Shown here piece after piece: positions 582 through 42,522 of a stretch of 64,000 bases of DNA. Source of the stretch: Clostridia bacterium (lineage in GTDB: Bacteria > Bacillota > Clostridia > Christensenellales > CAG-138); assembly GCA_017619735.1 (NCBI GenBank), contig JAFZRT010000020.1, forward strand, positions 2,622-66,621, read 5' to 3'. The translations under genes and the position numbers were made by a program. Below the pieces are notes generated by a model. The model did no database searches and was not told the origin of the DNA. It worked only from the letters and a program-made list of their open reading frames with translations. Numbering within the stretch: the stretch's first letter is position 1; every line of letters starts with the position of its first letter.

Positions 582-636
582 ATCCGTTTTCCTTTCCGTG
601 CCGCGGGTTTCTCGATCATTCACCGATCATCCAGCG

Positions 637-1704
637 TCACCGTTTTCGAAAATCGCCCATCGTCTTCTTTATCGCGACCGCTATTCCGTGACGGATCCTC
701 GTTTTTATTCTTTTTATGCGCAGCCGCCGGCTTTTTAGGTTATAAAGAAGCATGCCGTATTCGTTGTCCCAGATCCTCTCCGAAAGCCGGTGAGAATCGA
801 TCCAACTCCGGAAATCGCGGCAAACGGAGTCCGTTTCTTCCATAGACGCGCAGCTTATCTTCTCCCTTGCAAGAACCATGTGCAGAAAAAGCAGGATATC
901 GTCCGATCCGCCAAAGGGAACAAGCGCGTCCTCGATTTTGTCGACTATCTCCGGGATATGAGCGACCCGCTTCAATCTGCGTCCGGCGTTGCCTTCATCT
1001 CCCGCCTGGCGGTAACGGTAGATCGGTTCACGGCAGAAACAGATCTTCCCGCACTCCGCCATAAGCCGAAGTGAGAATTCAAGATCCTCATAGAGGAACA
1101 TGTCCTCCCTGAGCCGTATCCCCGTTTTCTCAATTATACTCCTTCTTATGAGTTTATTCCAGAGCGGGCTTATCGCATTGTCTTTGAACAGCGGGTACAG
1201 TTTATTGCTGCATTCGTCAAATGAAACCGTCCCCTCGATGCCAGGGAGCGCGATATCCCTTCGGTATATCCTGTCCCCGGAATAGTAATCGAACGACAAC
1301 CCGAATACCGCCATGTCGACCGGGTCGCCCTCCGAGACAGTCCGCATGAGTTCCGCCAGCTTCACCGGCTCGACCGTGTCATCGGAATCGACGAAAAGCA
1401 CGAATGTGCCGGCTGCGGCCTGCAACCCCGCGTTTCTTGCAGCTGAGACTCCCTTGTTGGGTTGGTGGACGACGAGTACCTTACAGCGATCCGTGCTTTC
1501 AGTTTTCGCAATTATATCGCAAAGCTCCGATGATCCGTCCGAAGAACCGTCGTCGACAAGTATGATCTCACTCACGATCATTGCGCCGCAGTGATCGTTT
1601 ACCGCGATAACGGACGCAACGCAGTTTTCCAAATGATCCTTGCTGTTGTAAACCGGGATGATGACGCTCAACGATTCCATTTTTTGACCTCTCAGCGCTG
1701 CCAC
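637..1704 (-). CDS. Glycosyltransferase family 2
   Basis: SVIIPVYNSKDHLENCVASV ... LVDDGSSDGS ... FVDSDD motifs (GT-A fold, DxD). The likely true start is ATG at 1680 (MESLSVIIPVYN). Confidence 0.85.
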   Translation of the reverse strand: MAALRGQKMESLSVIIPVYNSKDHLENCVASVIAVNDHCGAMIVSEIILVDDGSSDGSSELCDIIAKTESTDRCKVLVVHQPNKGVSAARNAGLQAAAGTFVLFVDSDDTVEPVKLAELMRTVSEGDPVDMAVFGLSFDYYSGDRIYRRDIALPGIEGTVSFDECSNKLYPLFKDNAISPLWNKLIRRSIIEKTGIRLREDMFLYEDLEFSLRLMAECGKICFCREPIYRYRQAGDEGNAGRRLKRVAHIPEIVDKIEDALVPFGGSDDILLFLHMVLAREKISCASMEETDSVCRDFRSWIDSHRLSERIWDNEYGMLLYNLKSRRLRIKRIKTRIRHGIAVAIKKTMGDFRKR

Positions 1705-2792
1705 AAGAACCGATACGGCATATACACGGATGAATTATTGACCGTCGTCAGGAATCGCCATATCGCAAAAGCGCAAACGACTACCGTCGCGTAATCCAAC
1801 AGCTTTTCGTTCTGCACCAGATTGCCCTGCGATCTGGTCTTTCCTCCCTTTTCGAAGATCGAAGGGATCAGAATAATCGAAGTATGGAAATAGTAGTCCG
1901 CCAAACGCTCGAAGATATTGTTGTAACCGCAGAATGTCTGGAAAATGATCGCAACGCCCAAGAACATCAGTAAAGAGTTGTATAAAGAAAACTCCCGCTC
2001 CGGCGGCCTAATAAAGACCGCGAAAACCGCAAGAGCTATCATGATCAGCACTTTATTGCGCAGGAATCTGATACCTTCCATAGTTACTCCACTGTCTCCC
2101 TCGCCATACGCCCTTAGCATAAGTGTAATCAATTGATCCCTGAACGCATATGTCAACACAAGCAGGACCGCCAGCAGAAGCAGATAATTCCTGCCGATCC
2201 TCATCCGGCCTATCCAGTATGCGGGCAGAAAGACCAGCGCCGGGAAATGGAACGCAGCGGCAAGCACCGTAAGTATGATGAACTTTATAGGTTTCTTCTC
2301 CATTATCCCGTCGAATGCAAAGAGCAGTATTGCCATTGCGATCCCCTGTTTCAGCGCATCGAACAGGAAGGGGTAGTACAGCAGCCCCAGAAAGCACAGC
2401 ACGCTCTGGATAGGGGAAGGAGCATACTTCAGAATAAAGCGCGAGTACGAGATCATTACGAACAGAGAAATGATCGTAACAAAGGCCTGATAGTTTCCTT
2501 CTGTCAGCACATAGATCAGCTTTGTAAGGTAGTTGAATCCGATATTATAGTTTTTTAAGCTCTTGCCGCCTATCGCTCCCCATGCTGTATTGCCCTCACG
2601 GCGGAAAATGATAGGATACGACCCATGAGTTCCCGATGCATCGCTTCCGAAGGCATTCACGTCCCTCAAGCCCATCACGATAAAGAGGAGCAGGAACGCG
2701 ATTATCATGAATTGCGTACTGCGCTTCTGATTGCCGCGGAACATCAGCGCCGCGGCAACGAGCAATATTACAAGCCATGTGTATGCTGTCAT
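1692..2792 (-). CDS. EpsG-family polysaccharide polymerase-like polytopic membrane protein
   Basis: 366 aa and highly hydrophobic, with multiple TM helices and a GLRDVNAFGSD...Y segment resembling the EpsG/Wzy-type signature. A 4-nt ATGA overlap links it to the upstream GT4 gene. Confidence 0.65.
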   Translation of the reverse strand: MTAYTWLVILLVAAALMFRGNQKRSTQFMIIAFLLLFIVMGLRDVNAFGSDASGTHGSYPIIFRREGNTAWGAIGGKSLKNYNIGFNYLTKLIYVLTEGNYQAFVTIISLFVMISYSRFILKYAPSPIQSVLCFLGLLYYPFLFDALKQGIAMAILLFAFDGIMEKKPIKFIILTVLAAAFHFPALVFLPAYWIGRMRIGRNYLLLLAVLLVLTYAFRDQLITLMLRAYGEGDSGVTMEGIRFLRNKVLIMIALAVFAVFIRPPEREFSLYNSLLMFLGVAIIFQTFCGYNNIFERLADYYFHTSIILIPSIFEKGGKTRSQGNLVQNEKLLDYATVVVCAFAIWRFLTTVNNSSVYMPYRFLWQR

Positions 2793-4003: not shown

Positions 4004-4897
4004 CTACTTCAGCGGAATCATTTTCTTGATTTTCCTTAATACTCGGTAGCTTATTGCGCCAAGATCATAAATCCATAAGTATGCCTTCGCAATCTTTGTT
4101 TTGAAAAGAAACCTGCTTATCCTTGAGCTCTTGCCCAAAAACGCTTTCATTCTGCCGATTTCAAATTTGTAAAGGGACTTCCGGGTACAGTAATTGCTCC
4201 AATGTAAAAGGCTGAAGTTGTGAGGATCACCTCTGCGTTTGGCGATCCCTTTTACAATATCAACTGTAACATCTTTGGGTTTTGGCGCAAACAACAGTTC
4301 TTGCTTGTTAAGCGGCCTGCAGCCGCATACAGCCATACCAAGAGCAAGTACAGGCTCGTCCGCGGGTTTGGAAAAACCCGCGAACTCATAGTCATAATAA
4401 TGATCAGCACAATACTGTGCAATGCGAAAAACCTCGGCGCATTTTTCCGTATTGCGCAAATAATAGAGTCCGCCGTTATATGTCGGAACGAAAGAGATCC
4501 TGTCAGCGAACTCCTTCATTCCCTTTGGATGAAACCACCCATGTTTTGTATCCATGTCTTCAATAGCATATCCAAATACAGAGAAATCACCTGCCGTCTC
4601 GAATAATTCCCACCACTCATCTATGTTCCCATACACCAAACAGTCTGCGTCAATAAAAATCGTTTCTTCGAAAGGAATGAATTCATAGAGACGCAGCTTA
4701 TCCATATAGCTGTTTGACGGATGATCCATCAGAATAACTTTGTCGAATGCCTCTGTATACTCGTTCTTCCTGTCGCAAATAACGGCAAACGGATACTTCC
4801 CCGCATTCATACGATAAGAGCAGAGGAGATTGTTTGCAATCTTATAATAAAGTTCATTCCCTGTCGCTATTGTGACAAAGCCTCTCGTCGCTGTCAT
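4004..4897 (-). CDS. Putative GT8-like nucleotide-diphospho-sugar transferase
   Basis: FVTIATGNELYY ... IFIDADCLVYGNIDEWW (DxD in a GT-A-like context). I moved the start to ATG 4897, which is preceded by GGAGGGAG. The track ORF extends to 5044, which would overlap the upstream gene. The gene is visibly AT-rich. Confidence 0.55.
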   Translation of the reverse strand: MTATRGFVTIATGNELYYKIANNLLCSYRMNAGKYPFAVICDRKNEYTEAFDKVILMDHPSNSYMDKLRLYEFIPFEETIFIDADCLVYGNIDEWWELFETAGDFSVFGYAIEDMDTKHGWFHPKGMKEFADRISFVPTYNGGLYYLRNTEKCAEVFRIAQYCADHYYDYEFAGFSKPADEPVLALGMAVCGCRPLNKQELLFAPKPKDVTVDIVKGIAKRRGDPHNFSLLHWSNYCTRKSLYKFEIGRMKAFLGKSSRISRFLFKTKIAKAYLWIYDLGAISYRVLRKIKKMIPLK

Positions 4898-4955
4898 CAA
4901 AGCTCTCCCTCCGTTAAACAAGTGATGCCAACCGACAGAATAAACCGGTTGCGTT

Positions 4956-6086
4956 TCATCTGTTCCGATATTCCTTCCGTGCTGATGCTTCCCTATAGAT
5001 ACTGTATATCGGGGCATATGCCGTCTTATTGCTGTACCCGGCATCTTCGATCTTCAGCGAATACCGTTTCGGATCGACCCGTTTTGCATTGGTCAGCGCT
5101 TTGCGCCATGCCGCCTCGTCGTCTAGGGGAAGCGGCTGTACAAGATCCGTCAGTATCGCGTCGTCCGGGATCCTGTCGGATATTATGCAGGGAAGGCCGT
5201 TTGCCTGCGCCTCGATCAGCGCAAGCGGCGTCCCCTCCCTCAGAGACGGGAACGCGAATACGTCCATCGCGCTCAGGCACTCGTTCGCATTCATGACCCC
5301 TCCGCAGAAAAGAACAGCTTCGGTCACGCCGCATTCCTTCGCCGCCCTCTTCAAGCGTTCAAGCTCCGCTTCTTCGCCTCTGCCGAGGAGCATTAGCCGC
5401 GCATTCGGGATGGTCTCCCTAATCTTCGGGAGCATCCTGATCAGGAACTCCTGATTCTTCAGCCGCAGAAGCGTGCCGGCATGTCCTATTACGAACGCAT
5501 CCGACGGTATGCCGTACTTCTCACGGATAGCGCTTCGATCCCCCTCTGAATAAGCGAACGCGTCGGTATCTATGCCGTTGCGGATCACGCGTCCGCGCTT
5601 TGCGAACGCCTTCGCGCCAAAGAGCCATTCGCCCGCCTCAACTCCGCATGCGAGCAGATCCGTAGCGGACCACAGTATCGCCTTCTGCATGAATCGCTCA
5701 TAGAGCTTCTGCGATCTGGAGACCCTTTTCTCCGTCTTTGTGGTATGCGAATGCGCTATCCTGACGGGCACGCCCATGAGCTTCGCAACGCCGAGGTTTA
5801 TTCCAGAGTTGAACATCGTGTGCGAGTGGACGACGTCATAGCGGTTCTCTTTGATCAGTTCCCTCAGCTTCCGAACGTACGCGCGATAACCCGAAGCGGG
5901 TACAGGCGCGGTCAAAACCTTTCCGCCCCGCGCTTCGATCTCGCGGCCGTAAACGTTCTCATGGCCCTCAAACACCAAGTAATGAAATTCGAATTCACCC
6001 TCCGGAGCGTTGGTGCTAATGTTTGCCGCCACCCGCTCCGCGCCGCCCATTTGAAGGCCGCCGGGTATGATAAGGATCTTTTTCAT
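4956..6086 (-). CDS. Glycosyltransferase family 4 (GT-B)
   Basis: MKKILIIPGGLQMGGAERVAANIS ... FPSLREGTPLALIEAQANGLPCIISD. I moved the start to ATG 6086; the first 73 codons of the track ORF look like non-coding read-through. Confidence 0.85.
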   Translation of the reverse strand: MKKILIIPGGLQMGGAERVAANISTNAPEGEFEFHYLVFEGHENVYGREIEARGGKVLTAPVPASGYRAYVRKLRELIKENRYDVVHSHTMFNSGINLGVAKLMGVPVRIAHSHTTKTEKRVSRSQKLYERFMQKAILWSATDLLACGVEAGEWLFGAKAFAKRGRVIRNGIDTDAFAYSEGDRSAIREKYGIPSDAFVIGHAGTLLRLKNQEFLIRMLPKIRETIPNARLMLLGRGEEAELERLKRAAKECGVTEAVLFCGGVMNANECLSAMDVFAFPSLREGTPLALIEAQANGLPCIISDRIPDDAILTDLVQPLPLDDEAAWRKALTNAKRVDPKRYSLKIEDAGYSNKTAYAPIYSIYREASARKEYRNR

Positions 6087-7162: not shown

Positions 7163-8026
7163 TCATCCAAAATACAACTGACTGATATGTTTCTCCTCCT
7201 CCGTTATCTCCTCATAATTACGATTGAAATCCACTAGGATCGGATGATGTGTCCATACGCGCTTATTCTCAGGAGGAAGCGTCTTGTAGTCTCTGTAAGC
7301 AACGCTTAAGTATCCATCATAATCTTTAACAGCTTCGTATTCTTTGCCTTGGAATTCGATTCTGTGAAGATCGTCAAACAAGCCAGCAGGGTAAAGCTTA
7401 TTGCAGGAAACGGGGGTCGCCGGGAAGATAATATGATTGTTCTTTAAGTGATTCCAACGTCTGCCTCTTTTACCAAACCAAACGCTCAGTTTTCTGTATG
7501 CACATTTGGGAGTAATCATGAGAAGTGTCTTATCAATGATGCCCATTGCGCCTGGTTTTCCGCTCGGATAACCGCGGTTATAAAGAAGGCTCAGCAGAAA
7601 CTCGACCTTCTGTATCTTCCTGTTTAGTCTTCCGGATGCTTGACGGTCAGCCGGAAAAATATCCACAAAAAAGCCTTTATGAATGGAGCGAGTTCTTTCA
7701 AAGTCGAATTGCAGGAATGTAGTATGATCCTTGCGGATTTTTGTAAAGTTGTTTACACTATCATCTTCGACAGTCTCATCCTGAAGGATAAAGCCATTAG
7801 GAGGTGAGTTTCTCCAAATAGTTTTAAACTTTTCATAATCCTCTCTCGGCATCATGATATCGATATCATCGTCCCAGGGAATGAAGCCCTTGTGCCGAAC
7901 GGCGCCGAGCAGAGTACCGTAAGCGAGCGAATACCTGAGGCCGTTTTCCGTGCATACGCGGTCGATCTCGTCCAATATCTCCAGTTCGACTTTCCAGATG
8001 TCTTCAAGCTTAATGTTCTGATCCAT
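7163..8026 (-). CDS. LicD-family phosphotransferase (transfers a phospho-alcohol or phospho-amine from a CDP-activated donor to a glycan)
   Basis: YSLAYGTLLGAVRHKGFIPWDDDIDIMMPREDYEKF is the classic LicD/FKTN-type nucleotidyltransferase-fold motif. The gene is AT-rich relative to its neighbours. Confidence 0.8.
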   Translation of the reverse strand: MDQNIKLEDIWKVELEILDEIDRVCTENGLRYSLAYGTLLGAVRHKGFIPWDDDIDIMMPREDYEKFKTIWRNSPPNGFILQDETVEDDSVNNFTKIRKDHTTFLQFDFERTRSIHKGFFVDIFPADRQASGRLNRKIQKVEFLLSLLYNRGYPSGKPGAMGIIDKTLLMITPKCAYRKLSVWFGKRGRRWNHLKNNHIIFPATPVSCNKLYPAGLFDDLHRIEFQGKEYEAVKDYDGYLSVAYRDYKTLPPENKRVWTHHPILVDFNRNYEEITEEEKHISQLYFG

Positions 8027-8027
8027 T

Positions 8028-9167
8028 TTATTTTGCCGATCCTTCCTTGAGGATGAGTTCCCTTATCTCGTTCGATACGGATGAAACCTTGTAATCCTGT
8101 GCCTTTTTGCGGCCTGCTTCGCCCATGAGCATCCTCTCTTCGGTACCGCGGGACAGCAGGAGTATCGCATCCGCGAAGCCGTCCGCGTCTGCGGGCTCCA
8201 GCAGGACGCCGGTAACGCCGTCCTCCACCAGTTCGTCATGGCCGCGGTTATGCGACGCGACGACCGGCTTTTTGCAGAGCATCGCCTCGATAATGTTGAG
8301 TGGCATGCCCTCGCGGAAGCTGCAGGATACGACCAGATCGACGGCCGGGACGACGCGCTCGAGATCGGTGCGGTAGCCCAAGAGCTTGACCGTGTCCCGG
8401 AGCCCCGAAGCGGCTATCTGATCCCACAGAGCCTGCTCCGCGGAGCCGTTGCCGGCAAGCAGCACCTTGAGGTTCGGGATCCTGTCCGCGAGCTTCGCCG
8501 CGGCGGCAACGAGCGTTTTCTGGTTCTTGTTCTCGTTGAGCTCGCCGGTGCAGAGGATAACGAAATCGTCCGCGCCGAGGCCCTCCGCCTCGCGCATGAC
8601 GCGCTGTTCCTCCACCGTCGCGGGGCGGTAGCGCTCTTCATCGACGCCCACTCCGTGGATATGTGCTATCTCGGTACGGCTGCCGAACCGCTCCTTTGCA
8701 AGAGCATAGTCCTCCTCGTTGACCGTGATCAGGAGGTCACAGTACTTCGCCATGTGCTTTTCAATGGGATAGTACACGAGCCAGCCGGTCTTCGAAGCGC
8801 CCTTGAAGAAATGGAAGCCGTGGGCCATATAGACGACCCTCGTCCCCTGTTTGCGTGTCTTCTTCGCGGCGAGCCTCGTCACTATGCCGCCCATGGGCGT
8901 GTTGCAGAGTATCACGTCGTAGTGCTCCTCCGCGAGCAGCTTTTTGAGCTTTCTGTAGGCCTTCAGGTTGTTCGGGCTCTTGGGCGAGCGGTCGAACGGT
9001 ATCTCCATGAATCTGTCGCAGTTTTTGAGCTGCAGGCCGTTCTTGACGGCAAGATTGTCGTGCGCGGCGGCGTGCACCTCCCAGCCCTGCTCCCGAAGCA
9101 TCTTCATGTGCGGCAGGTGGAACTGGCAGATATGGCTCAATACGGTTGCGGTGTAGAGGATCTTCAT
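8028..9167 (-). CDS. Glycosyltransferase family 4 (GT-B)
   Basis: SFREGMPLNIIEAMLCKKPVVASHNRGHDELV (E-x7-E) and a GT4-type N-terminal domain. Confidence 0.85.
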   Translation of the reverse strand: MKILYTATVLSHICQFHLPHMKMLREQGWEVHAAAHDNLAVKNGLQLKNCDRFMEIPFDRSPKSPNNLKAYRKLKKLLAEEHYDVILCNTPMGGIVTRLAAKKTRKQGTRVVYMAHGFHFFKGASKTGWLVYYPIEKHMAKYCDLLITVNEEDYALAKERFGSRTEIAHIHGVGVDEERYRPATVEEQRVMREAEGLGADDFVILCTGELNENKNQKTLVAAAAKLADRIPNLKVLLAGNGSAEQALWDQIAASGLRDTVKLLGYRTDLERVVPAVDLVVSCSFREGMPLNIIEAMLCKKPVVASHNRGHDELVEDGVTGVLLEPADADGFADAILLLSRGTEERMLMGEAGRKKAQDYKVSSVSNEIRELILKEGSAK

Positions 9168-9231: not shown

Positions 9232-10788
9232 TTACCAAGGCAAAAGGTTGTTTATATTGTAATAGATTCGCTCCAGCATCTCTCTTTGTTTGGTCTCGTT
9301 TCCATTCACTACGTGGATGCCGAGTTTCTCGATACGATCATCCATAAGGCGGATCATGTCCTTATGAAGATCGTCGTGCATCCTTTTTTCAAGAGGTGTA
9401 CGAAGCATCATTTCCAAAAGTGCCCTGTTGTTATACGGAACAGTTATCTCGTTCGTCAACATATGCTCGCCGGTCAAAGCAAGTCCGCCCCATCCGCCGA
9501 ACACTATCTCCCATACAAAGAATTCTGTCCACGGATATCCAAAGTCGTCTATTGCCTGTCTTAACCCGGTTTTCTCCAGATATTCGTTGAACTTTTTATC
9601 CGTCCTCAGGGCGTTTCCTCGGTCAAAAGCAAAGAGCTTATACATCGATGTCAGCATTCTTGGGCGAATCTTGTCGGGGAACTTCTTCTTGCCGTATCTT
9701 CTGTAGCGGCTTGCTCTGGCTACCTCAGACACCCAGGATTTCACCTCGACATCATAATCGAACTGTTCCTTCAGTACGATCCTTTTGCAGACATCGTTTG
9801 CATTTGCTTTTCCGAGATAAGAGTAGTGCCTATTGATCAAAGCCGAAACTTCTTCGTACTCCTCATAAGCGGACGGGTCCGGGTCGACCGTAAATATCCT
9901 GTGCTCAAGTCCCAGCGCCTCGCAGATCTGTTTGGCAGCAAGCGCGTCGTTTTCTTCCCGGGGAAGAGAAACATAGCTGAAATATGAGAACCGTTCCTGA
10001 ACGCCTTTCGCGCATGCGAGCGTCGTTTTGCTGTCGGTACCGCCCGTCAGCGAGATCGCGGGACTCTTCCATTTTTCTGCGGCAATCCGCAGATTATTGT
10101 TCATTATCGTACAGATATTCTTGACCTGTTCTTCATAGGATTCATCCCCGACTTCCGAATACTTTTTCCGCGGATAAAACCTGTTGACGCTCGCCTTTTT
10201 CCTTATCACTGTCTCGGTATTGGGGACAATGCGTTTGACCTCCTGGTAAGGGGTAAGATCTCCCGGAAGGTACCAGCCATACCAATGGAACAGCTTTGAT
10301 CTCTTCAGCTTCGTTATGTATGGATCCTCTGTTAAGCCATAGATTTCTGCGATCATCTGGCTGTATGCGCTGAAGCATTTGTTTCCGTTAATGACCGCAT
10401 AGTTTGCTCCAAGCATTCCCGCGCAGTCGCAGGTAGCGGATATAGTGTCCTTATCTATCACCGCAAAGAAAAACACGCCTGTCAGCTGGTCGAAATAGTC
10501 TCTGTATCTCTCCGAACCGTACGCAAAATCGGAAAGGTGTTTCAGAATATCGTTTTCATCCCGTTCCATCGAAAACGGATTATACGCATGCCCTACAAGA
10601 AGGAAAGTGCGATCCGATTTTTCGCAAATATAGAACTTCTGTTCGTTATGAACGAACAGAGTGTACCCATTAACAAACTTGCTCTTCCACTCATTGAGGA
10701 AAGCGAGACGTTCCGTGGCTTGTCCCGGATCATCCGTAAGCAAGTATCCGAACGTGTATAAACTTTTGCTCCAATCCGTCATGCTCAT
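9232..10788 (-). CDS. Asparagine-synthase-like (PP-loop) amidoligase lacking the N-terminal catalytic Cys
   Basis: GVFFFAVIDKDTISATCDCAGMLGANYAV resembles the AsnB N-domain pattern. SLTGGTDSKTTLA is an SGGxDS-type PP-loop. The N-terminus is MSMTDW..., with no Cys2. A 4-nt overlap links it to the upstream ATP-grasp gene. Confidence 0.55.
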   Translation of the reverse strand: MSMTDWSKSLYTFGYLLTDDPGQATERLAFLNEWKSKFVNGYTLFVHNEQKFYICEKSDRTFLLVGHAYNPFSMERDENDILKHLSDFAYGSERYRDYFDQLTGVFFFAVIDKDTISATCDCAGMLGANYAVINGNKCFSAYSQMIAEIYGLTEDPYITKLKRSKLFHWYGWYLPGDLTPYQEVKRIVPNTETVIRKKASVNRFYPRKKYSEVGDESYEEQVKNICTIMNNNLRIAAEKWKSPAISLTGGTDSKTTLACAKGVQERFSYFSYVSLPREENDALAAKQICEALGLEHRIFTVDPDPSAYEEYEEVSALINRHYSYLGKANANDVCKRIVLKEQFDYDVEVKSWVSEVARASRYRRYGKKKFPDKIRPRMLTSMYKLFAFDRGNALRTDKKFNEYLEKTGLRQAIDDFGYPWTEFFVWEIVFGGWGGLALTGEHMLTNEITVPYNNRALLEMMLRTPLEKRMHDDLHKDMIRLMDDRIEKLGIHVVNGNETKQREMLERIYYNINNLLPW

Positions 10789-11759
10789 CCCTCCAGCAAG
10801 TCGGTAAATAGTGTTCGGTGCCCTCGGTTAAACAAAGTTTGTTCCGGATAGAATTCTGCGTCCCAGTTGCCTTCTATCATGATTGGTCCTTCGTTCGTTA
10901 ATGCAACATCCCACGATGTATATCTGAGCTCCGGTGTAACCATGGAAGCACGTCTAGCTAGATCACATATAGCTTCCCATTGAGGAATTACAATGCCTGT
11001 GATCGGCTTGTCGGTCTCAGGATGAATCGAGTACCGCATAAAGTGTTTATCCATGGCAAGCGTTTCGATACGACCAGTCTTTACGTTAATGCCTGCCGCA
11101 ATCCCTCCTGAATGGATGTTGTCAACAATGGTATTGTTTCCAAACCGGATAATTGCGGTAACTATTATGGGAGTACTCGGCGTCTGCAGTACGGTAACCT
11201 TAATAGTATTCAAAGAGTTGGGATAAATCTCTCTTAACAGGTCATGATTAATTATTACGGGCTCCACGACTTCGTTTTCACCCAAATAGCCCCATACTCG
11301 CGCTGCATCTTCCTCACATAAAACCCTTTCTTTTCTTGCGCCTTCGCCGCCCCAGCCAACTGCTCTCTTGATAAACAGATCTGGATGTCGGGACGTAAAC
11401 TCAAGGAATGCTTCGAATCCATCGCTCTTTGTACATTGTTCCCTCTTCATGAAATCGGCGTAGTATTTTGCGGCAAGTGATTTGTCGCCGATCCTGCACC
11501 GCAGTTCCTGCGGGTTGTAGCGATCAAAAAAGCGAAACATGTACCGTCTTGTCATATAAGTACGCTTTTCGCTGTGCTTCTTTGCATAGAAACGATAGCC
11601 GGCATATTCCGAGAAGCTCGTCCCGTAGATCAGATAACTGATCACTGCTCCGACAGAAAACGCTGTGGAGCTGATATGCTTTTCTTTGATCAATTCATCT
11701 CCCGCGCTTACTAGATCGTTATAATAGCCTTTCAGTTTTTTGATGTCGGAAAGCTGCAC
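10785..11759 (-). CDS. TupA-like (sugar-transfer-associated) ATP-grasp ligase
   Basis: FIKRAVGWGGEGARK ... NIHSGGIAAGINVKTGRI ... TSWDVALTNEGPIMIEGNWDAEF. This layout is typical of the ATPgrasp_TupA family. A paralog lies at 42523-43581. Confidence 0.65.
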   Translation of the reverse strand: MQLSDIKKLKGYYNDLVSAGDELIKEKHISSTAFSVGAVISYLIYGTSFSEYAGYRFYAKKHSEKRTYMTRRYMFRFFDRYNPQELRCRIGDKSLAAKYYADFMKREQCTKSDGFEAFLEFTSRHPDLFIKRAVGWGGEGARKERVLCEEDAARVWGYLGENEVVEPVIINHDLLREIYPNSLNTIKVTVLQTPSTPIIVTAIIRFGNNTIVDNIHSGGIAAGINVKTGRIETLAMDKHFMRYSIHPETDKPITGIVIPQWEAICDLARRASMVTPELRYTSWDVALTNEGPIMIEGNWDAEFYPEQTLFNRGHRTLFTDLLEG

Positions 11760-11760
11760 G

Positions 11761-12672
11761 TCATTTTTCTCCTGAGATTATAGTTAGGTTTTCGAGTATC
11801 ACTCCTGCCAGTCGCTCCCCGTTCCCGTCGCCGACGAAGCTGTTGTGAGGGGTGGCGATGAGGTTCGGCGCGTCCCAGAGGGGGCTGTTCTCCGGGAGGG
11901 GTTCGGTCTCGAACACGTCGAGGACCGCTCCTGCTGCGCTGCCATCGTACAGCATATCGCAGAGGGCGTTCTCGTCGAGCACTCTGCCGCGCGAGATGTT
12001 TACGACGACCGCGCCGCGGGGAAGCAGCGCGAGGCGGCGCGCGTCGATGAGGCGGACTGTCTCTTCCGTCAGCGGGACGGTCAGCACCAGCACATCCGTC
12101 CGGGGCAGCGTCAAGTCCAGCTTATCGAGGGGCAGCATGGCGTCGTACGCGGCGTCCTCCCGCGGGAAGACGTCTATGCCCGTTACCCGGCAGCCGAACG
12201 CTTTGAAGCGTTTGGCGCATTCGGTGCCCACGCTCCCGCAGCCGACTATCGTCGTTCTTTTGCCGAAAAGCTCCATAAGGCCGCGGTGTTTTTCCCATCT
12301 GTGCGCCTGCTGGCCTTCCCGGAAGAACCGCGCCTGCTTGTAGAGCTGAAGCACGCCCGACACGGCGAACTCCGCCATGGGGACGCTGTAAACGCCGCGC
12401 GCATTTCGGATCTCGATCCCGTGCGAGCGGACATATCCCTTATCCACGCGGTCGAAGCCCGCGCTTGTGAGCTGTATGAAGCGGAGATTCCCGAACTCCG
12501 CGATGGGATGGTAAAGGAACAGGCCGTTGCAGACGACGCCCTCGACCCACCCGGGATCGCAGGGGAGCTCGTCCCTTTCCTGCTGCAAGAACGCTATGCT
12601 GTTGCCGAGCGCTTCAAGCTCCGCGAAATGGGCTTTCGCGCCTGCCCATGCGCCGGTTATCAGCAGATTCAT
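11761..12672 (-). CDS. NAD-dependent D-isomer-specific 2-hydroxyacid dehydrogenase
   Basis: TIVGCGSVGTECAKRF (GxGxxG), RGRVLDENAL and the TPHNSF catalytic His region. Confidence 0.85.
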   Translation of the reverse strand: MNLLITGAWAGAKAHFAELEALGNSIAFLQQERDELPCDPGWVEGVVCNGLFLYHPIAEFGNLRFIQLTSAGFDRVDKGYVRSHGIEIRNARGVYSVPMAEFAVSGVLQLYKQARFFREGQQAHRWEKHRGLMELFGKRTTIVGCGSVGTECAKRFKAFGCRVTGIDVFPREDAAYDAMLPLDKLDLTLPRTDVLVLTVPLTEETVRLIDARRLALLPRGAVVVNISRGRVLDENALCDMLYDGSAAGAVLDVFETEPLPENSPLWDAPNLIATPHNSFVGDGNGERLAGVILENLTIISGEK

Positions 12673-12710
12673 GTCGCCTTTTCCTTTCCAGCCGCGGCCG
12701 AAACCCGTTT

Positions 12711-13547
12711 TCAGGCGTCGGTCCTGCGGCAGATCTCGTCCACGAGCCGTATGAGCTGCTTCTCGTTATCGTAGAAGAAGCTGCTGTGCTTTTCACATTC
12801 CTTCTCAAGGTCGCGGATCTCCCGCACGCCGCGAATGAACGTCGCGTTGATTATGCCTATATGATGCTGTTTCGTGACGTCGCAGAAGCTCCTTGACAGT
12901 ATCACGAAGCTCGACCCGAGACGGTAATGCTCCTTTATTATGAATTCGGAGGGCAGCATGCCGTTGCCGAGCGATGCGATGCCGCCGAAGCCGAACGGAA
13001 TGCCCTTCTTGCGGAACTTGAAGCAGAGCTGTTCCACGGTGCCGTCGGCCAGTATCTCGAACATGAACCTGCGGCCGTAGCCGAGGCTCAGGTCGTTGAG
13101 GCCGATATGGATCTCGTCAACGCCGGGTATCTCGAGTATCTCGTCGATGATCTCGACCGCTTCGGGCGTTTCGAGGAGGAGCATGGTCCTTGCTCTGCCG
13201 CCGACGAGCTTTATGAAGGTCCTGACCTCCTCCGCCGTTTTGAAATACGGGAGCATTATTATATCCGCGCCCGCTTCGACAACGGCGTTTATCTCGTCCT
13301 CGGAGGAGAAATAGTCGGGCAGCGCGTCGTGTATCGGGTTGACCCTCACGAGCACGTCTGCCTTTTCGACGCTCTGCTTGATCCTTGCCGCATCCTGCAC
13401 GGTATGATGGGATTTCACGGTATCCAGACCGTTCTGCCGGGCATCCTTGCCTATGAACTCCATGTCGACGAATATCCGATCCACTCCCGCTGATTCCGCT
13501 ATCTGCGCGATCTCGGGCATATTGGTGATGTACATGAGCTTTAGCAT
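12711..13547 (-). CDS. HpcH/HpaI aldolase / citrate-lyase-beta family protein
   Basis: TIM-barrel-like pattern: GVDRIFVDMEF ... VRVNP ... GADIIMLPYFKTAEEV ... LLLETPEAV ... VDEIHIGLNDLS. Confidence 0.6.
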   Translation of the reverse strand: MLKLMYITNMPEIAQIAESAGVDRIFVDMEFIGKDARQNGLDTVKSHHTVQDAARIKQSVEKADVLVRVNPIHDALPDYFSSEDEINAVVEAGADIIMLPYFKTAEEVRTFIKLVGGRARTMLLLETPEAVEIIDEILEIPGVDEIHIGLNDLSLGYGRRFMFEILADGTVEQLCFKFRKKGIPFGFGGIASLGNGMLPSEFIIKEHYRLGSSFVILSRSFCDVTKQHHIGIINATFIRGVREIRDLEKECEKHSSFFYDNEKQLIRLVDEICRRTDA

Positions 13548-13593: not shown

Positions 13594-14241
13594 TTAAACC
13601 GTGGCTCCCTTGTTTTCGTTGTCGGCGTTGGTGAACACCTTGCCGACGGTGACGAAGAGTATCCTTACGTCCAGAGGCAGGGACACGTGGTCCACGTACC
13701 AGACGTTCAGTTCTATGCGCTTATGCCACTCCACGTCCTTGCGGCCGTGCACCTGCGCCCAGCCGGTGATGCCGGGGCGCACTTCGAACATGCGCAGCTG
13801 CTCCGGGGTGTAATCCTCCACCGGCCAGGGGTGGTATGTGAGCGGCGGGCGGGGCCCTATGAGGGACATGTCGCCCTTCAGTATGTTGACGAGCTGCGGC
13901 AGTTCGTCTATCGACGTCTTCCTTAGCAGATTGCCTATCTTCGTCATGCGCGGATCCTTGTTGTCGCTGTACACGCCGGAGCCGGTGTGCTCGCTGTTCA
14001 CGCGCATGGTGCGGAACTTGTAGATGGTGAACTCCTTTGCTCCCAAGCCGAGCCGCTTCTGCTTGAATATCGCGGGGCCTTCGGAGGTGAGCTTGACCGC
14101 TGCCGCGGATACCAGCATTATCGGGGACAGTACCACGAGCGCGACCGCCGATATCACGACGTCGAAGGCGCGCTTCACGACCCGGTTATAGAAGCCGCGC
14201 GAGGCCTTTTTCCCTTCCAAGCGTTTTTCGTCCCTGTCCAT
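13594..14241 (-). CDS. Undecaprenyl-phosphate sugar phosphotransferase (priming bacterial sugar transferase, small PGT type)
   Basis: KRAFDVVISAVALVVLSPIML ... IYKFRTM ... DELPQLVNILKGDMSLIGPRPP ... RPGITGWAQV. Confidence 0.9.
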   Translation of the reverse strand: MDRDEKRLEGKKASRGFYNRVVKRAFDVVISAVALVVLSPIMLVSAAAVKLTSEGPAIFKQKRLGLGAKEFTIYKFRTMRVNSEHTGSGVYSDNKDPRMTKIGNLLRKTSIDELPQLVNILKGDMSLIGPRPPLTYHPWPVEDYTPEQLRMFEVRPGITGWAQVHGRKDVEWHKRIELNVWYVDHVSLPLDVRILFVTVGKVFTNADNENKGATV

Positions 14242-14278: not shown

Positions 14279-15766
14279 TCAGTCTTTTTTCTTGCTGTCC
14301 TTGCTGCCGTAGCTGCCGTAATGGCTGTAACCGTAGCGGCTGTACCCGTAACGGCTGTAACCGTAGCGGCCGTAGCCGTACTTGCCGTAGCTGCCGTAAT
14401 AGCCGTACCTGCCGGAATGTGTGCTTCCTCCGTTCAGTATGCAGCCGGCGATGTTCGCGCCGCCCGAGGTGAGCTCCTCGATGCCGTCGAATATGTAGCG
14501 GCGGCGGGCGTAATCGCACATTATGACGTACGCGACGGCGTCGACGTGCTTGACGAGTATCATGGCGTCGACGAGCACCGCGGAGGGAGGCGTGTCGAGT
14601 ATGACGACGTCCGCACGTTCCTTGAGCTGTTCGATGAGACGGCTCATCTCCTCGCTGCCGAGTATCTCGACCAGGCGGGACGGCGTATCGGCGCCGGGCA
14701 TGAGGAAGAGGCCGGTGGATTCGTCGTTGTGCTTGACCTCGCAGAGCGCTTCGTCGATCGTCGCTTCGCCCTTCAGCACGGCGACGAGGCCGGGATAGCT
14801 TTCTTCGATGTGGAATATCTTGCCGGATGAGGGGTTCCTGAGGTCGCAGTCGACGAGAATGACCTTCTTGCCCTTCAGCGCCATGGATATCGCGAGGTTC
14901 GCGGAAACGGTGGATTTGCCCTCGCCCGCGACGGAGCTCGTTACCATGAGCACCTTACCGCCCGCCATGCGGCGTTCGAGCCTCGTCCTTATGAGGCGCA
15001 TGGACTCAACGTAGTCGCCCTTGTCGTTGTCGGTGAGTATGTTGATCTCCATCCTTGTATTCTTGCTGCGCTTTTTCCTGCTGCAGACGGGCAGTGTGCC
15101 GAGGCAGGGAACGTTGACGAGATCCCTGAGCTCCGACTCGCTGCGGACCGTCCTCGACAGCGCGGCCCTTACTACGACTATCGCAAGGCCTATCGCAAGT
15201 CCGATGAGCGCGGCGTTCCTTACAGAGCCCCTTATGACCGCCGTGCGGCCGGTATCCTGGGGAATGCCGCTCTCGTCGATGACGGTGAGCTCCGCCTGAC
15301 CGACGACGTACTGCGCTACCTCGGGGTAGTTCTTGAGCACCGACTGGAGGATGTTATAGGCAGTCTCGGCCTTGGAGGCGGTGGCGCTTATCGTAAGAAG
15401 GTTGGTTCCCTTGATGTTCTTCGCCGAAATGGTGCCCGGCACGCTCCTGGTGCCGAGGTCGGAGGCGATGACGTCGGAGAGGGCGCCGCTCGTCAGTATG
15501 TAAGGGAATATGAGGCCCATCTGCTCGGCCGTGTTGCGGTTGGCGTAGGTGCCGCCGTTTACCAACTCGACCGATACCGTGGCGTCTGCGACGTACCTCG
15601 GAGTATATGTCGTCGTCACCCGGTAGTAGGCGAACGCTACCGCAGCCGCGGTTATAAGCGCGACCAGGGGCCACATCCTTTTGAGGCTGTGGAGAAAATC
15701 CCTCAGGAACGCAAACAGGTCGACGCCCTTTACTTCCTGATTCTCAGTGGATACTTTTTCGCTCAT
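14279..15766 (-). CDS. Fused Wzz-type chain-length determinant / BY-tyrosine kinase (CpsC-CpsD fusion), copy B
   Basis: N-terminal Wzz-like domain with TM helices. Walker A VTSSVAGEGKSTVSANLA, Walker A' ILVDCDLRNP, Walker B VVILDTPP. The C-terminal tail carries 14 Tyr. Confidence 0.85.
   Translation of the reverse strand: MSEKVSTENQEVKGVDLFAFLRDFLHSLKRMWPLVALITAAAVAFAYYRVTTTYTPRYVADATVSVELVNGGTYANRNTAEQMGLIFPYILTSGALSDVIASDLGTRSVPGTISAKNIKGTNLLTISATASKAETAYNILQSVLKNYPEVAQYVVGQAELTVIDESGIPQDTGRTAVIRGSVRNAALIGLAIGLAIVVVRAALSRTVRSESELRDLVNVPCLGTLPVCSRKKRSKNTRMEINILTDNDKGDYVESMRLIRTRLERRMAGGKVLMVTSSVAGEGKSTVSANLAISMALKGKKVILVDCDLRNPSSGKIFHIEESYPGLVAVLKGEATIDEALCEVKHNDESTGLFLMPGADTPSRLVEILGSEEMSRLIEQLKERADVVILDTPPSAVLVDAMILVKHVDAVAYVIMCDYARRRYIFDGIEELTSGGANIAGCILNGGSTHSGRYGYYGSYGKYGYGRYGYSRYGYSRYGYSHYGSYGSKDSKKKD
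14303..14413 (-). repeat. Coding tandem repeat (15-nt and 9-nt periodicity) for the Tyr-rich tail of kinase B
   Basis: The plus strand reads gctgtaaccgtagcggctgtacccgtaacggctgtaaccgtagcggccgtagccgta... It encodes RYGYYGSYGKYGYGRYGYSRYGYSRYGYSHYGSYGS. Confidence 0.9.
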
Positions 15767-15778
15767 ATCCGTCCCCCA

Positions 15779-17314
15779 TCACTTGGCGCTGTCCTTTTTG
15801 GACTGTTCGCCGTAATGTCCGTAGTAGCCGTAGTTGCCGTAGTGTCCGTAATTGCCGTACTTGCCGTATTTGCCGTAGCGGCCGTACCTGCCGTAGTTGC
15901 CGTAATGACCGTACCTGCCGTATCCGCCGTAGCCGACGACCGTCCTCCTCTCGCCCGGGAGCGCGCGCACCTGGTTCAGTACGCAGCCCTCGAACTCGGC
16001 GCTGCAGTTGCGCAGCGAGTCAATGGCGTCGTTGATATCGGGGGCCAGTATGGTATCGTACTTGACGACCAGTATCGAGAGGTCGGAAAGATCGGCCATG
16101 ACCTCCGCGTCGGCCATGAGCGACATGGGCGGCGAGTCGATGATCACGTATTCGTACTTCGATTTCGCCTCGTCGATGAGGTGGCTCATCGCCGCGGAGG
16201 ATACTATATCGGTGGAGTTGGAATAGTTCCTGTCGTTGAGGAGAAGGTGTATGTCGCGCTTCTCGTCGAAGTATATGGCCTCGTCGAGCGTCAGACCGCC
16301 CGTGAGGAACTCGGGCATGCGGGCGTTCTCCTCCTCGCCCTTTTCGAGGAACAGGCTGTTAAGGGTCGGGCGGCGGAGGTCGCCGTCGATCAGCAGCACG
16401 CTGTGCGCCTGCTGTGCGAGCGACAGAGCGAGGTTTGCGGAGACAGTCGATTTGCCCTCGTGCTCCTGCACGCTGGTAACGAGTATCACCTTCGCCCCGC
16501 GGTGCTTCGCCTGCGCGGCTACGAGCGCCGCGACCTTCTTGTTCCTTTCGACGAATTCGAACTTCGCGTCCAGCTCGGTGATGAGGAGCTTCTTCTTTTT
16601 CCTGCTGAACAGGCTCTTCAGGGACTTGCTGCCGTTGTAGTAGAACATGCCGAGGGTATGCGCGTCGAGCTTCTCCTCCATGTCCTTTTCGCTCTTTATG
16701 GTGTCCTTCCTGTAGGAGAGGAACGCGAACACCGCCGCGAAGGCGAGGCCCGCTATCACCGCGGCCTTTACCGTCTGTCTGCGGGAGGATACCGCAATAT
16801 CCGACTTGGTCGGGACCGTCGGCTCCTGCAGGACCTCCATGACCATGTCGGTCGAGACGTACCCCGCGAGGTCGGCGACGTTTTTCATGACCGAGCGTAT
16901 TATCTTATACGTGTTCTCCGGGGTGTCGGAGGTCACGCGGAGCGTCATGAGGTTGGTGTCGCTTATGACCTTCGCGCTCATGGTCGCGTTGAAGCTGTCG
17001 ACGTTAAGATCGCGGCAGACCTTCTTTTTGAGCAGATTGCTGTTGAGTATGTTGGAGTAGCTCGTGGCCATCGTGGACGCCGCGGACAGATTGCTGTACG
17101 CGTAGTTGCCGGACGTCCTCGACGTGACGACGAACATCGCTTTGGTCGAATACGTGCTCTGTATCTTCGACCGCACCGACATATTGACTATGAGGCCCAC
17201 GGCGATCGCGCCGAGCGCGATGACCCACGCGTTCCTTAACAGGTCCCTGATTATGCTGTACAGATCGAGCTTTTCGAGGAGCGTTGAGGTTTCCTGTTTC
17301 GTTTCCATACTCAA
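15779..17314 (-). CDS. Fused Wzz-type chain-length determinant / BY-tyrosine kinase, copy A
   Basis: Wzz-like N-domain with TM helices. Walker A VTSVQEHEGKSTVSANLA, A' LLIDGDLRRP, B YVIIDSPP. The C-terminal tail carries 15 Tyr. Confidence 0.85.
   Translation of the reverse strand: MSMETKQETSTLLEKLDLYSIIRDLLRNAWVIALGAIAVGLIVNMSVRSKIQSTYSTKAMFVVTSRTSGNYAYSNLSAASTMATSYSNILNSNLLKKKVCRDLNVDSFNATMSAKVISDTNLMTLRVTSDTPENTYKIIRSVMKNVADLAGYVSTDMVMEVLQEPTVPTKSDIAVSSRRQTVKAAVIAGLAFAAVFAFLSYRKDTIKSEKDMEEKLDAHTLGMFYYNGSKSLKSLFSRKKKKLLITELDAKFEFVERNKKVAALVAAQAKHRGAKVILVTSVQEHEGKSTVSANLALSLAQQAHSVLLIDGDLRRPTLNSLFLEKGEEENARMPEFLTGGLTLDEAIYFDEKRDIHLLLNDRNYSNSTDIVSSAAMSHLIDEAKSKYEYVIIDSPPMSLMADAEVMADLSDLSILVVKYDTILAPDINDAIDSLRNCSAEFEGCVLNQVRALPGERRTVVGYGGYGRYGHYGNYGRYGRYGKYGKYGNYGHYGNYGYYGHYGEQSKKDSAK
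15809..15934 (-). repeat. Coding 9-nt tandem repeat for the (Y-G-x)n tail of kinase A
   Basis: The plus strand reads gccgtaNNN repeated about 14 times (gccgtaatgtccgtagtagccgtagttgccgtagtgtccgtaattgccgtacttgccgtatttgccgtagcg...). It encodes GYGGYGRYGHYGNYGRYGRYGKYGKYGNYGHYGNYGYYGHYG. Confidence 0.9.
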
Positions 17315-21041: not shown

Positions 21042-21140
21042 GGCATAGTATAAGGTTTACTATGCCATGGTATTGGTAAAAATCCGCGGCAATGTGAAAA
21101 AACCTTGATGAAACAGATATTCCCAAAGGAGGATAGAACA

Positions 21141-24100
21141 TTGAAAAAGCGTTTTGCGAAGTTCCTTGCTCTGGCCCTCGTGCTGGTCATGGTCCTTTCC
21201 GCCATCCCCTTCTCTGCCATCGCGCAGGGGTTCGTGAATGACGGCAACGAGACCACCGCCATCGGCGATCTCTGGAGCAAACTCAGGGGCGGTCTGAATG
21301 ATTTCTTCAGGCCCCGTCCCACGACCCCGCCCACGACCGATGGAAGAAGCTTCACCGGTGTTACGGAGAGCGGCCTTACCGTCAACGTCGACGCTCCCGC
21401 CGGCGCTTTCATGAACGGTACGACCATGACCGTCCGCGAGGTCGCGAATATGCAGGCAGTGCAGGATGCCGTCGATAACACCGATGGCGTATCCGGTACC
21501 GTCCTTGCTGCCGTCGATATCACCTTCATGCTTCGCGGCAGGGAAGTCCAGCCCACGAAGGATATCACCGTCAGCATCACCTCCGACGCTCTCGCTTCCG
21601 TGAGCAACCCCTCCGTCGTCCATATCGACGCGAGCGCGGATGAGCTCGGCGGCGAAGAGGACGCGGATCTTGTAGCCAACGTCAAGTCCGGCAACAGCAC
21701 CGTCACCTTCGAGGCGGACAGCTTCTCCATCTACGCGGTCATCGACGACGGCCAGGAGGGCGATCTCGCTCGTTTGGAGATCAATTTCTATAAGCCCTCC
21801 TATTCTGAAGGTCAGATGAGCTACGAACTCGTTGCGACTGTCTACGTCAAGAACTCCGATCAGCTCCTCGGCGACGGCGAACGTGTAGAAACCGTCCAGT
21901 ATATCGAGGATATCGTGTACGATCCCGGCGTGGGCGGCACCCTCGGCGATGGACTGCTCTTCGGCGGCTGGACCATCGACTCTGCCGACGCCAACCCGAC
22001 AGGCAGCACCAACTACGGCAAAAACTATGACGTCGACACCACGGTCTACACCATTCCCGGTATCTGCAAGTATCTCGCGCAGAAGAAGGTCGGCCATATT
22101 GCAGAGGGCGACAAGCTCGATATCTACGCTCTCATCTACAAGGTATTCGACGTGACCTATAAGGACTCGCACGACATCGTTCTTGCGTCCGACATAGTCA
22201 TGATGCCCCTTAACGCTACCTCCGGTTCCTTCACCATCAAGGAGACCTACAAGCCCAACGATCAGATCACGAACTTCGAAGGCTGGCAGGTGGCGGAAGG
22301 CGCGAGCAATATCTCCAACGCCAGCAAACCCGCGCCCTACCCCCAGGGCACGACCATGGATCTCTCCGGCGACGTCGTGTTCTCCACCGTGCTTGTCAGC
22401 GGCCACTGGCTCGTTTACGAGGAGAACGGCTACGGCGCGACCTATAATGCGCCCGCGTTCATCAAGTCCAACGAGCTGACCCATGCGCCCGCCCTTGAGA
22501 TGACCCGTCCCGGCTACACCTTCGGCGGCTGGTACACCGACGCCGCCTGCACCGCCGGCAACGAGTATCCTTTCAATCTGCCCCTTGAAGACCGTCTCAC
22601 CGTCTACGCGAAGTGGACCATGGCTACCACCGCCGACTATACGGTCATCATCTGGAAGGAGAACATCGACTGCGACGGCTACGATTACGTGGGATCCATC
22701 TCCATGAACGGCACTACGCAGTCCCCCATCAGCCCGATCACGAAGGTCAACGATACCACCGCGAGGGTAGACGGCACGAGCTACAGCTACACCGGCTTCG
22801 AAGTCGGTGACTATGACTCCAACGTCACCATAAAGCCCGCCGGCGGTTCCGTGCTCAATGTTTACTTTGACCGTATCGAGTATACGCTGACCTTTAAGGT
22901 TACCAATATTGCTTATACTTATAATGGTAGTGGATATGTAGATGCTCCTGTCGGTACCACTGCAGTAACCAATAGTAGTAACATTAATACGCTCAACAGC
23001 AACCAGAGAACGATCTCCGGATATCAAGTGTCGTATTACGGTAGTAATTATTATAACCGAACATATTGCGTAAAGGTTGGCTCTTCCTGGTACCCGATAA
23101 CTTCTAGAGGTTATAACGTTTACAATGCGAGCAACATTACTGCGGTTCCCGTTCCCGGCAACCCTGTTGTAAAAACAATCACTGCGGCTTTCGAGCAAGA
23201 TATTTCCGCTGAGTTCCCGATTGTTGCCGAAAACGGTGTTATCTATCCCACGGGAACCCGTTGGAACCCCGATAGTGGCTTGACTGTTGACGGCACAACG
23301 TACTTTACTCACGATGTCGTTGTCGCTTTTATCGATAAGATGACTCCCGGCGATATGGAGTTTGAGATAAGCGACCCGGGCAGTAGAACAGAAAAGACGA
23401 TGGTCTACTGGGTCGAAACCATCAACAACACTCCAACGGAAGGAAAAGCCACAAAAACATACAAGGGTGTTTTGTATGAAGAATACAAAACGGTACGTGC
23501 TCATTATACCGGCGTTACGATAGAGGACTATATTGAGCTTAACGGGTTCTCTCATTTGGAAGCTGACCAGTCCCTCGGCTATACATCCAACGGAACAACC
23601 TATTATGGCACGTCGTCCGGTGCAGCAACTGAGGTCAATTTCTACTACACTCGCAATCAGTATAGCATCATCTACTTTGACGGCGTCTACTACAACAGGG
23701 ACGGTATCATGACTGAAGACATGCCCGAGGATCAGGGCGAGCTCCATGTCGATAGCAGTATCTATTTCAACGCCGACATCAGCAGCTACGGTGAGGGCGG
23801 CGTCCATTACTATACCCCCACCTGCCCCCCCGGTTTCATTTTCGACGGCTGGTACCTCAACAAGGAGTGCTCTGATGGAGCCGAAGCCGACTTCGACAAG
23901 ATGCCCCTCGGCGGCATGAAGGTCTACGCCAAGTGGAGACTGATCGAATACCGCGTGTTCCTGAAGCCCAACGCCCTCCTGAACGGCACAAGAGACAACA
24001 CTCTTGACTGGGGTAAAGATGATCAGGCGACCAACTTCCGTATCGACTACAACAAAAAGGTCTCCTGCCCCACCGGTCTGAGGTACGGCTTCGAGTTCGG

Positions 24101-42488: not shown

Positions 42489-42522
42489 ATTGGCATGTCA
42501 TGATGTTAACGGGGATAATGAA

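Follow-up and report, generated by a model that had tools for sequence, protein, structure and literature searches.

We analysed a polysaccharide locus on the minus strand of a 64,000-nucleotide stretch of a Clostridia bacterium genome (contig JAFZRT010000020.1, positions 2,622 to 66,621; hereafter the window). Four open reading frames (ORFs) lie between a small monotopic priming phosphoglycosyl transferase (PGT; 13594-14241, PF02397) and a GT4 glycosyltransferase (8028-9167), exactly where an initial annotation of this DNA had placed them. They encode a pyruvate-aldolase-like barrel protein (12711-13547), a D-2-hydroxyacid dehydrogenase (11761-12672), a sugar-transfer-associated ATP-grasp protein (10785-11759) and an AsnB-like ligase (9232-10782, the longest ORF starting at 10788). 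The locus runs from a CpsB phosphatase, two tyrosine kinases and the PGT through these four genes to the GT4, LicD, more glycosyltransferases, an EpsG-type polymerase and ABC-2 genes. The GT4 follows the module in most loci of the same family and, from its position, is probably the first extender of a lipid-linked starter sugar.

Pfam searches assigned the aldolase to PF03328 (E = 1.7e-12) and the dehydrogenase to PF02826 (E = 9.7e-51), in agreement with the HpcH/HpaI-type aldolase and D-2-hydroxyacid dehydrogenase named in the initial annotation. The dehydrogenase carries the NAD-binding and catalytic Arg/Glu/His set (GxGxxG at 144, RG at 228-229, E257 and H276). The ATP-grasp protein matched PF14397 (ATPgrasp_ST; E = 1.3e-42, 146 bits against a gathering score of 31.4) and has EGN at position 296 as its ExN metal motif. 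Its assignment to the sugar-transfer-associated type thus stands, whereas the proposed likeness to TupA was rejected: PF14305 gave no match at E<=0.01, while the same model does match a different protein of related loci. The source genome (G000) has three further ATPgrasp_ST genes away from this locus. Two tandem ATPgrasp_ST-like genes occur in this genome outside a glycan locus (C27:26286-28628) and are at most 29% identical to the locus ATP-grasp protein.

The fourth protein matched PF00733 over its PP-loop stretch only (E = 1.2e-6). A GGAGG motif lies 7 nt upstream of its second ATG (10782) and only 1 nt upstream of the first (10788); 516 aa is also the length of the database entry and of most close relatives. 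This spacing and length favour the second ATG as the probable true start, giving a 516-aa protein beginning MTDW in place of the 518-aa protein beginning MSMTDW that had been proposed. The tight packing described earlier is visible in the sequence, with an ATGA overlap at 10785-10788 and a 1-nt gap at 11760; with the start at 10782, however, the overlap with the ATP-grasp gene becomes a 2-nt gap.

The predicted structure of the AsnB-like protein (pLDDT 95.6) contains both an Ntn-like and a synthetase domain, and Foldseek matched it to CarA (9e-17), TsnB9, ASNS and beta-lactam synthetase (TM 0.5-0.64 over the whole length). Its two-domain fold and PP-loop are shared with AS-B, WbpS, beta-lactam synthetase and CarA, whereas its identity to solved AsnB-family members is 10-14%. 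A single-sequence search of solved structures returned nothing significant, and a profile search returned PP-loop matches only. In the PP-loop motif S-x-x-G-G-x-D-S, residues S244, G247, G248, D250 and S251 are invariant in 74/74 relatives, and the motif aligns with the canonical LSGGVDSS (probability 96). Neither candidate start gives an N-terminal nucleophile Cys, as the initial annotation had noted; a Cys falls within the first 12 residues in 6/74 relatives with no conserved column, whereas M1-C2 is invariant in the canonical AsnB of related loci. The amine would therefore not come from a glutaminase activity of the protein itself. These features support its assignment as an AsnB-fold, Cys-less ligase predicted to activate a carboxylate. 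A relative in locus L028 (9053-10675, genome G100) has an in-frame TAG.

Composition divides the block in two. The AsnB-like and ATP-grasp genes are AT-richer than the kinases, as previously remarked (GC 0.469 and 0.457 vs 0.58-0.60). At third codon positions (GC3), the ATP-grasp gene has 0.48 and the AsnB-like gene 0.57, against 0.84 for the PGT, 0.78 for the aldolase, 0.79 for the dehydrogenase and 0.81-0.85 for the kinases. This split into a genome-like and an AT-richer part points to two layers.

We compared 181 aldolase loci, comprising the window, 19 loci from the same family, 75 of 80 relatives, one plasmid, and 80 and then 5 further relatives. Genes were first named with Pfam and then labelled with hidden Markov models (HMMs) derived from these loci themselves. 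Loci L062-L066 (repeats of family loci), L229 (the same locus as L053) and L235-L240 (added later) stand outside the 181, and the near-duplicates L068/L069, L204/L206 and L219/L221 were kept within them. Among the 95 well-flanked loci (>=3 kb on both sides), a PGT lies within 3 kb of the aldolase in 88. The aldolase is accompanied by a dehydrogenase in 60 of these loci, by a class IV aminotransferase in 16 (14 with a pyridoxal phosphate (PLP)-dependent decarboxylase) and by a canonical AsnB in 11. Across all 181 loci these three partners (90, 27 and 21 loci, respectively) never occur together within 4 kb, and all three work on a 2-oxo acid or on its carboxylate group. In dehydrogenase-type loci, the PGT is at most 300 bp upstream of the aldolase in 87/90 and the dehydrogenase at most 300 bp downstream in 83/90.

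The ligases are distributed differently. In a family sample of 201 genomes, the aldolase was found in 20, the AsnB-like gene in 13 and close ATP-grasp relatives in 4, each set nested in the previous one, and in all 4 genomes the ATP-grasp gene lies beside the aldolase and AsnB-like genes. The Cys-less AsnB-like gene occurs with the dehydrogenase in 31/32 loci and never with a canonical AsnB. Conversely, within 3 kb the AsnB-like gene is missing from 38/60 well-flanked dehydrogenase loci, two of the 38 having one just beyond. An ATP-grasp gene is present in 9 loci, of which 8 have the AsnB-like gene and the ninth is cut by a contig end. The close AsnB-like subfamily is confined to aldolase genomes in both the family sample (13/13) and an order sample (5/5), which share three genomes. 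In two other families the AsnB-like gene stands alone in non-glycan surroundings, and both genomes carry PGT, aldolase, dehydrogenase and GT4 elsewhere. The conserved core is thus PGT, aldolase and a 2-oxo-acid tailoring enzyme, with the ligases as nested add-ons, the ATP-grasp protein being the optional outermost one and the AsnB-like ligase an optional one tied to the dehydrogenase type. The four-gene block put forward in the initial annotation is ruled out as a unit by the optional ligases and the constant PGT; its view that these genes decorate a glycan is upheld.

Several variants were observed alongside these patterns. In L068, L069, L074-L076 and L082, a PGT-aldolase(-dehydrogenase) set sits between mntP and yqeC/AIRS-family genes, outside any glycan cluster, a placement indicating that the set moves as a unit of its own. 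A variant that unites aldolase, PLP decarboxylase, PGT and class IV aminotransferase, often directly after PglF, is found in L090, L107, L108, L165, L182 and L192, and again in L208, L219, L221, L227 and L231; it predicts an amino-acid or aminoethyl branch. In L021, L026, L028, L030, L031, L034 and L038, a polysaccharide pyruvyl transferase lies beside an FrhB-like 4Fe-4S protein after the GT4, possibly a pair converting a pyruvyl to a lactyl ether.

Gene fusions are a further link between the aldolase and the priming sugar. Of 150 aldolase representatives we scanned 21 long ones and found PGT-aldolase (5), PGT-GT4-aldolase (1) and GT4-aldolase (1) fusions, as well as an aldolase fused to a PglF catalytic domain (1, with three cluster members) and aldolases fused to the N-terminal part of PglF (2). 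The fused PglF catalytic domain is 43% identical to the PglF of the source genome (G000) and 33% to the short paralogue of that protein. Tailoring enzymes are fused as well: 2-hydroxyacid dehydrogenase (2), Ldh_2, a reductase unrelated to the former (1, a cluster of 4), and PLP decarboxylase (2). PGT-aldolase fusions also occur as continuous ORFs in L119 and L240.

Phylogenies of 35 chosen loci point in the same direction. Mapped onto the aldolase tree, tailoring type requires six changes. The PGT tree needs only the minimum of two (support 98 and 95), and there the window PGT belongs to the dehydrogenase-linked clade; an aminotransferase-type clade is rejected on the aldolase tree (p-AU 2e-5). 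The aldolase thus appears exchangeable between types, whereas the PGT stays with the tailoring enzyme, a pattern expected of a PGT that recognises the tailored group. In the family sample, a strong match to PF02719 (PglF-type dehydratase) was found in 20/20 aldolase genomes vs 99/181 others, counted with the Pfam model, a single-protein query having missed three genomes. The usual C4 amination does not fill the C4 slot, since DegT is near-absent: it occurs in 2/68 dehydrogenase-type loci, and G000 yielded no full-length DegT, only three partial matches of 27-38 bits. An in-locus PglF in L031 (4521-6429, genome G050) contains an in-frame TGA.

The aldolase belongs to a distinct, widespread subfamily with 680 representatives at 50% clustering (E<=1e-30), found in 5/301 genomes of a phylum sample. 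Close relatives are named as Clostridia or Oscillospiraceae, many from ruminant metagenomes, and the ESM Atlas gave only generic names. The predicted structure (pLDDT 95.8) is a pyruvate kinase/HpaI barrel. The nearest solved relatives by sequence are the class II pyruvate aldolases HpaI and YfaU (17-24% identity), and the protein scores 25 bits against the 368.8-bit cut-off of the HpaI equivalog TIGR02311. Across 108 aligned sequences, residues D28, E30, K34, R37, Q38, R68, E126 and D152 do not vary; in a separate alignment of relatives, the metal-binding E126 and D152 are present in 104/104 and R68 in 103/104. The Glu/Asp stretch aligns to HpaI chains, and R68 presumably corresponds to the catalytic Arg of HpaI. 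The subfamily thus shares its barrel, metal-binding Glu/Asp and invariant Arg68 with HpaI and YfaU. Unlike them, it has its own invariant GKxxRQ, a variable residue (T, I, K or V) after D28-x-E30, a glycan context and a proposed ketone acceptor. H48 is 92% conserved; HpaI falls outside the tool alignments at this point, where we take the His after its DxE motif to be His45.

Taken together, we estimate a probability of roughly 0.6 that this locus builds and loads a C-branched starter sugar, with the aldolase adding pyruvate to C4 of 4-keto-6-deoxy-GlcNAc in UDP- or lipid-linked form. A PglF-type dehydratase acting in trans would first convert UDP-GlcNAc to UDP-4-keto-6-deoxy-GlcNAc. The Mg-dependent aldolase, as the proposed C4-branching enzyme, would then couple pyruvate through its methyl carbon to the ketone at C4. 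The resulting 4-C-(CH2-CO-COOH) branch would have the carbon skeleton of the C4-branched sugar shewanellose, and the dehydrogenase, as the proposed reducer of the side-chain 2-oxo group, would turn the branch ketone into CH2-CH(OH)-COOH. The PGT would place the branched sugar on polyprenyl phosphate for extension by the GT4. Tailoring most likely precedes loading, but may instead act on the lipid-linked sugar, for which passages of PMC11257628 on WreU/WreQ offer a precedent.

The two ligases would act in the least certain steps. The Cys-less AsnB-like ligase may adenylate the branch carboxylate to form an amide with ammonia or an amino acid, or to close a ring, and the ATP-grasp protein may attach a further amide-linked unit. 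A Mur-type ligase gene follows the AsnB-like gene in two loci (L028 and L096). Because of this, and because the ATP-grasp gene depends on the AsnB-like gene, we favour as product an amino-acid amide that could be lengthened; the alternatives are a ring or a primary amide formed with ammonia. This assignment of the ligases is tentative, and we rate it somewhat below an even chance.

The loci with a canonical AsnB offer a point of comparison. They form one aldolase clade, in which the partners are a Cys-bearing AsnB, a small PGT and a flippase, and reductase and class IV aminotransferase are absent; two named plasmids of Alphaproteobacteria that carry the same locus belong to it. NeuB or an amidotransferase-HisF/HisH set is present in 6/10 long canonical-AsnB loci vs 0/117 loci of other types. 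Aldol addition of the pyruvate methyl group to a 4-keto sugar followed by Gln-dependent amidation would yield the branch CH2-C(OH)2-CONH2, which we take to be that of shewanellose, a sugar reportedly also present in the Morganella morganii O-antigen. In passages of a review (PMC4052302), shewanellose is given as 2-acetamido-2,6-dideoxy-4-C-(3'-carboxamide-2',2'-dihydroxypropyl)-D-galactose, found with an 8-epilegionaminic acid derivative in the O-polysaccharide of S. putrefaciens A6. By this match of gene set to structure, the aldolase and canonical AsnB loci, often with nonulosonate genes, fit shewanellose. We found no biosynthetic pathway for shewanellose, and no description of an aldolase as a branching enzyme or of the reduced or aminated products, in the literature searched, which left most subscription journals outside. 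The article text of a Morganella serotyping paper does not contain 'aldolase' (its Supplementary Table 1, which may bear on the question, was outside scope), and none of the best 120 relatives of the Pseudohalocynthiibacter aldolase is named Shewanella or Morganella.

The sugar proposed for the window resembles shewanellose as a C4-branched 2-acetamido-2,6-dideoxyhexose whose branch, CH2-C(O)-C(O), is the skeleton of a pyruvate aldol adduct. Unlike the shewanellose type, the window locus has a keto-acid reductase and a Cys-less ligase in place of canonical AsnB, so a reduced, differently amidated shewanellose analogue is predicted. More generally, we consider it an even proposition that the subfamily branches 4-keto-6-deoxy nucleotide sugars at C4 with pyruvate, unlike S-adenosylmethionine (SAM)- or thiamine diphosphate (ThDP)-dependent routes. 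The family of sugars started in this way would comprise shewanellose where AsnB is present, an amino or decarboxylated form where an aminotransferase occurs alone or together with a decarboxylase, and, in the window, a hydroxy-acid form to which the Cys-less AsnB and the ATP-grasp protein would add a short amide-linked side chain.

Pfam has names for each of the four proteins, and modifying 4-keto-6-deoxy nucleotide sugars at C4 is chemistry of a known kind. As in the acyl-branched sugars, a C-C bond would be made at C4 of a 4-keto-deoxy nucleotide sugar, followed by side-chain reduction or transamination. According to passages of PMC9306805, a ThDP enzyme builds the acyl-linked branch of yersiniose A (YerE/YerF), erwiniose and caryophyllose, and an aldolase, if any, makes the free donor; unlike in the YerE and ErwE pathways, no ThDP carboligase was found here, and the aldolase itself is the proposed branching enzyme. 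The PglF-PglE-PglD-PglC (diNAcBac), WreU/WreQ and UDP-yelosamine systems likewise combine a 4,6-dehydratase, C4 tailoring and a small monotopic PGT to produce and load a modified starter sugar; here, in contrast, the C4 slot holds an aldolase and not an aminotransferase or reductase. Neither 'aldol' nor 'branched' occurs in the main text of PMC11257628.

Several points weigh against a branched starter sugar. Its chemistry, substrates, products and step order are all inferred from gene identities, folds, motifs, neighbourhoods, fusions and trees, and pyruvate kinase is as good a match to the aldolase fold as HpaI (Z 20.5 vs 19.4). None of the three partners is present in 8/95 well-flanked loci, and the canonical-AsnB loci form a single aldolase clade, so the mutual exclusion of that type counts as one event. 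Among the 21 long proteins, 6 have no second domain or an unrelated one, and some fusions may therefore be assembly artefacts. Physical linkage could also explain why the PGT follows the tailoring gene; moreover, the 35 tree loci were chosen after the first tree was known, and the full PGT tree puts 2/18 aminotransferase-labelled PGTs outside their clade. The genome-level link to PglF is confounded by kinship, aldolase genera mostly having PglF anyway. An in-locus PglF is present in 9/68 dehydrogenase-type, 11/20 aminotransferase-type and 2/13 AsnB-type loci; the window locus itself has no dehydratase, and the PglF of G000 lies on another contig (C22:7983-9935) beside its own PGT. Finally, 4/10 long AsnB-type loci have no nonulosonate gene in the stretch covered, and the shewanellose analogy is drawn from gene sets in genomes other than those of known producers.

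The alternative that survives best, though we consider it unlikely, is close to the initial annotation, with a small hydroxy acid as the free product of the aldolase and dehydrogenase. The starting compounds would be pyruvate and a small aldehyde, and the resulting 2,4-dihydroxy acid would be attached to an amino or hydroxyl group of the repeat unit by the ligase, the ATP-grasp protein or an acyltransferase. HpaI and YfaU, the nearest solved relatives, presumably take aldehyde acceptors, the window locus has two ligases, and an Acyl_transf_3 gene lies within 3 kb in 10/181 loci. However, most dehydrogenase loci are ligase-free (the 38/60 noted above). The alternative also leaves the PglF and PGT fusions, and PGT clades that track the tailoring enzyme, unexplained, whereas both tie the aldolase to the priming sugar. 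The UDP-yelosamine ATP-grasp in passages of PMC11257628 is a near precedent; N-acylation of that type requires a DegT-type 4-aminotransferase, and G000 has no full DegT to supply a 4-amino acceptor.

Less probable again is an arrangement of two independent layers, in which the PGT, aldolase and dehydrogenase act on the starter sugar while the AT-rich ligases amidate uronic acids elsewhere in the repeat unit, as WbpS- and Cj1438-like enzymes do. It concerns the ligases only and is compatible with the first four steps proposed above, from dehydration to loading. The lower GC3 of both ligases, the three further ATPgrasp_ST genes of G000, a UDP-sugar dehydrogenase in that genome (on C34, away from the locus) and distant AsnB-like relatives (23-26% identity) in aldolase-free glycan loci, one beside wecBC, are consistent with it. 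The close AsnB-like subfamily, by contrast, was seen only in aldolase genomes and with the dehydrogenase type. Moreover, UDP-sugar dehydrogenase genes are not enriched with the ligase (2/23 AsnB-like loci vs 4/38 dehydrogenase loci without it), which speaks against the uronic acid amidation suggested in the initial annotation.

A third possibility, which we rate very improbable, has the aldolase supplying a ThDP carboligase with a free 4-hydroxy-2-oxo acid, on the model of erwiniose and caryophyllose, or else producing an ulosonic acid that is then activated with CMP. Aldolase/citrate lyase family genes are known in branched-sugar clusters (passages of PMC9306805), and a CMP-synthetase is present in 5/21 canonical-AsnB loci. 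There it accompanies its own NeuB, and a 5-sequence HMM found none in G000 or in the dehydrogenase (0/90) and aminotransferase (0/27) loci. PF02776 had no match in G000 (92% complete; control positive in 14/14) or among locus genes, and a CH2-linked branch should not be obtainable by ThDP acyl-anion chemistry. For the source genome this route is largely excluded.

Other features of the window were recorded alongside the module. The two kinases (14279-17314, minus strand) are tandem, full-length and Wzc-like, the first with a long Tyr-rich tail, and are genus-conserved. ABC-2 transporter genes and an EpsG-type polymerase are both in the locus (window 3-623, G000 C25:1011-2306 and window 1692-2792), and as far as the contig end, which carries a gene of the pyruvyl transferase family, there was no sign of a Wzx-type flippase. 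A nucleotidyltransferase-aminotransferase fusion, an ATPgrasp_ST protein and an ornithine cyclodeaminase/mu-crystallin protein are encoded at 40671-44570 (plus strand). The first and third of these may make a CDP-donor for LicD (7163-8026), which we assume by analogy is perhaps an N-carboxyethyl aminoalcohol phosphate. In the exopolysaccharide locus of L024, the fusion and ornithine cyclodeaminase/mu-crystallin families immediately precede LicD. An AT-rich 346-aa protein without Pfam match (4004-5044, minus strand; start probably internal) has relatives in L024 and L072. A 1623-aa ORF with Listeria-Bacteroides repeats (21105-25976, plus strand) lies opposite a 1710-aa open frame without family match.

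If the free hydroxy acid alone were the product, the genes would still form an unassigned and very common glycan-tailoring cassette, of lesser interest. Should the locus instead build a branched starter sugar, shewanellose would gain a testable two-enzyme origin, clades of small PGTs would gain candidate substrates, and a pyruvate aldolase would be acting on a nucleotide-sugar ketone. The surface glycans of gut and rumen Clostridia, and of other phyla, would then contain at least two undescribed starter sugars.

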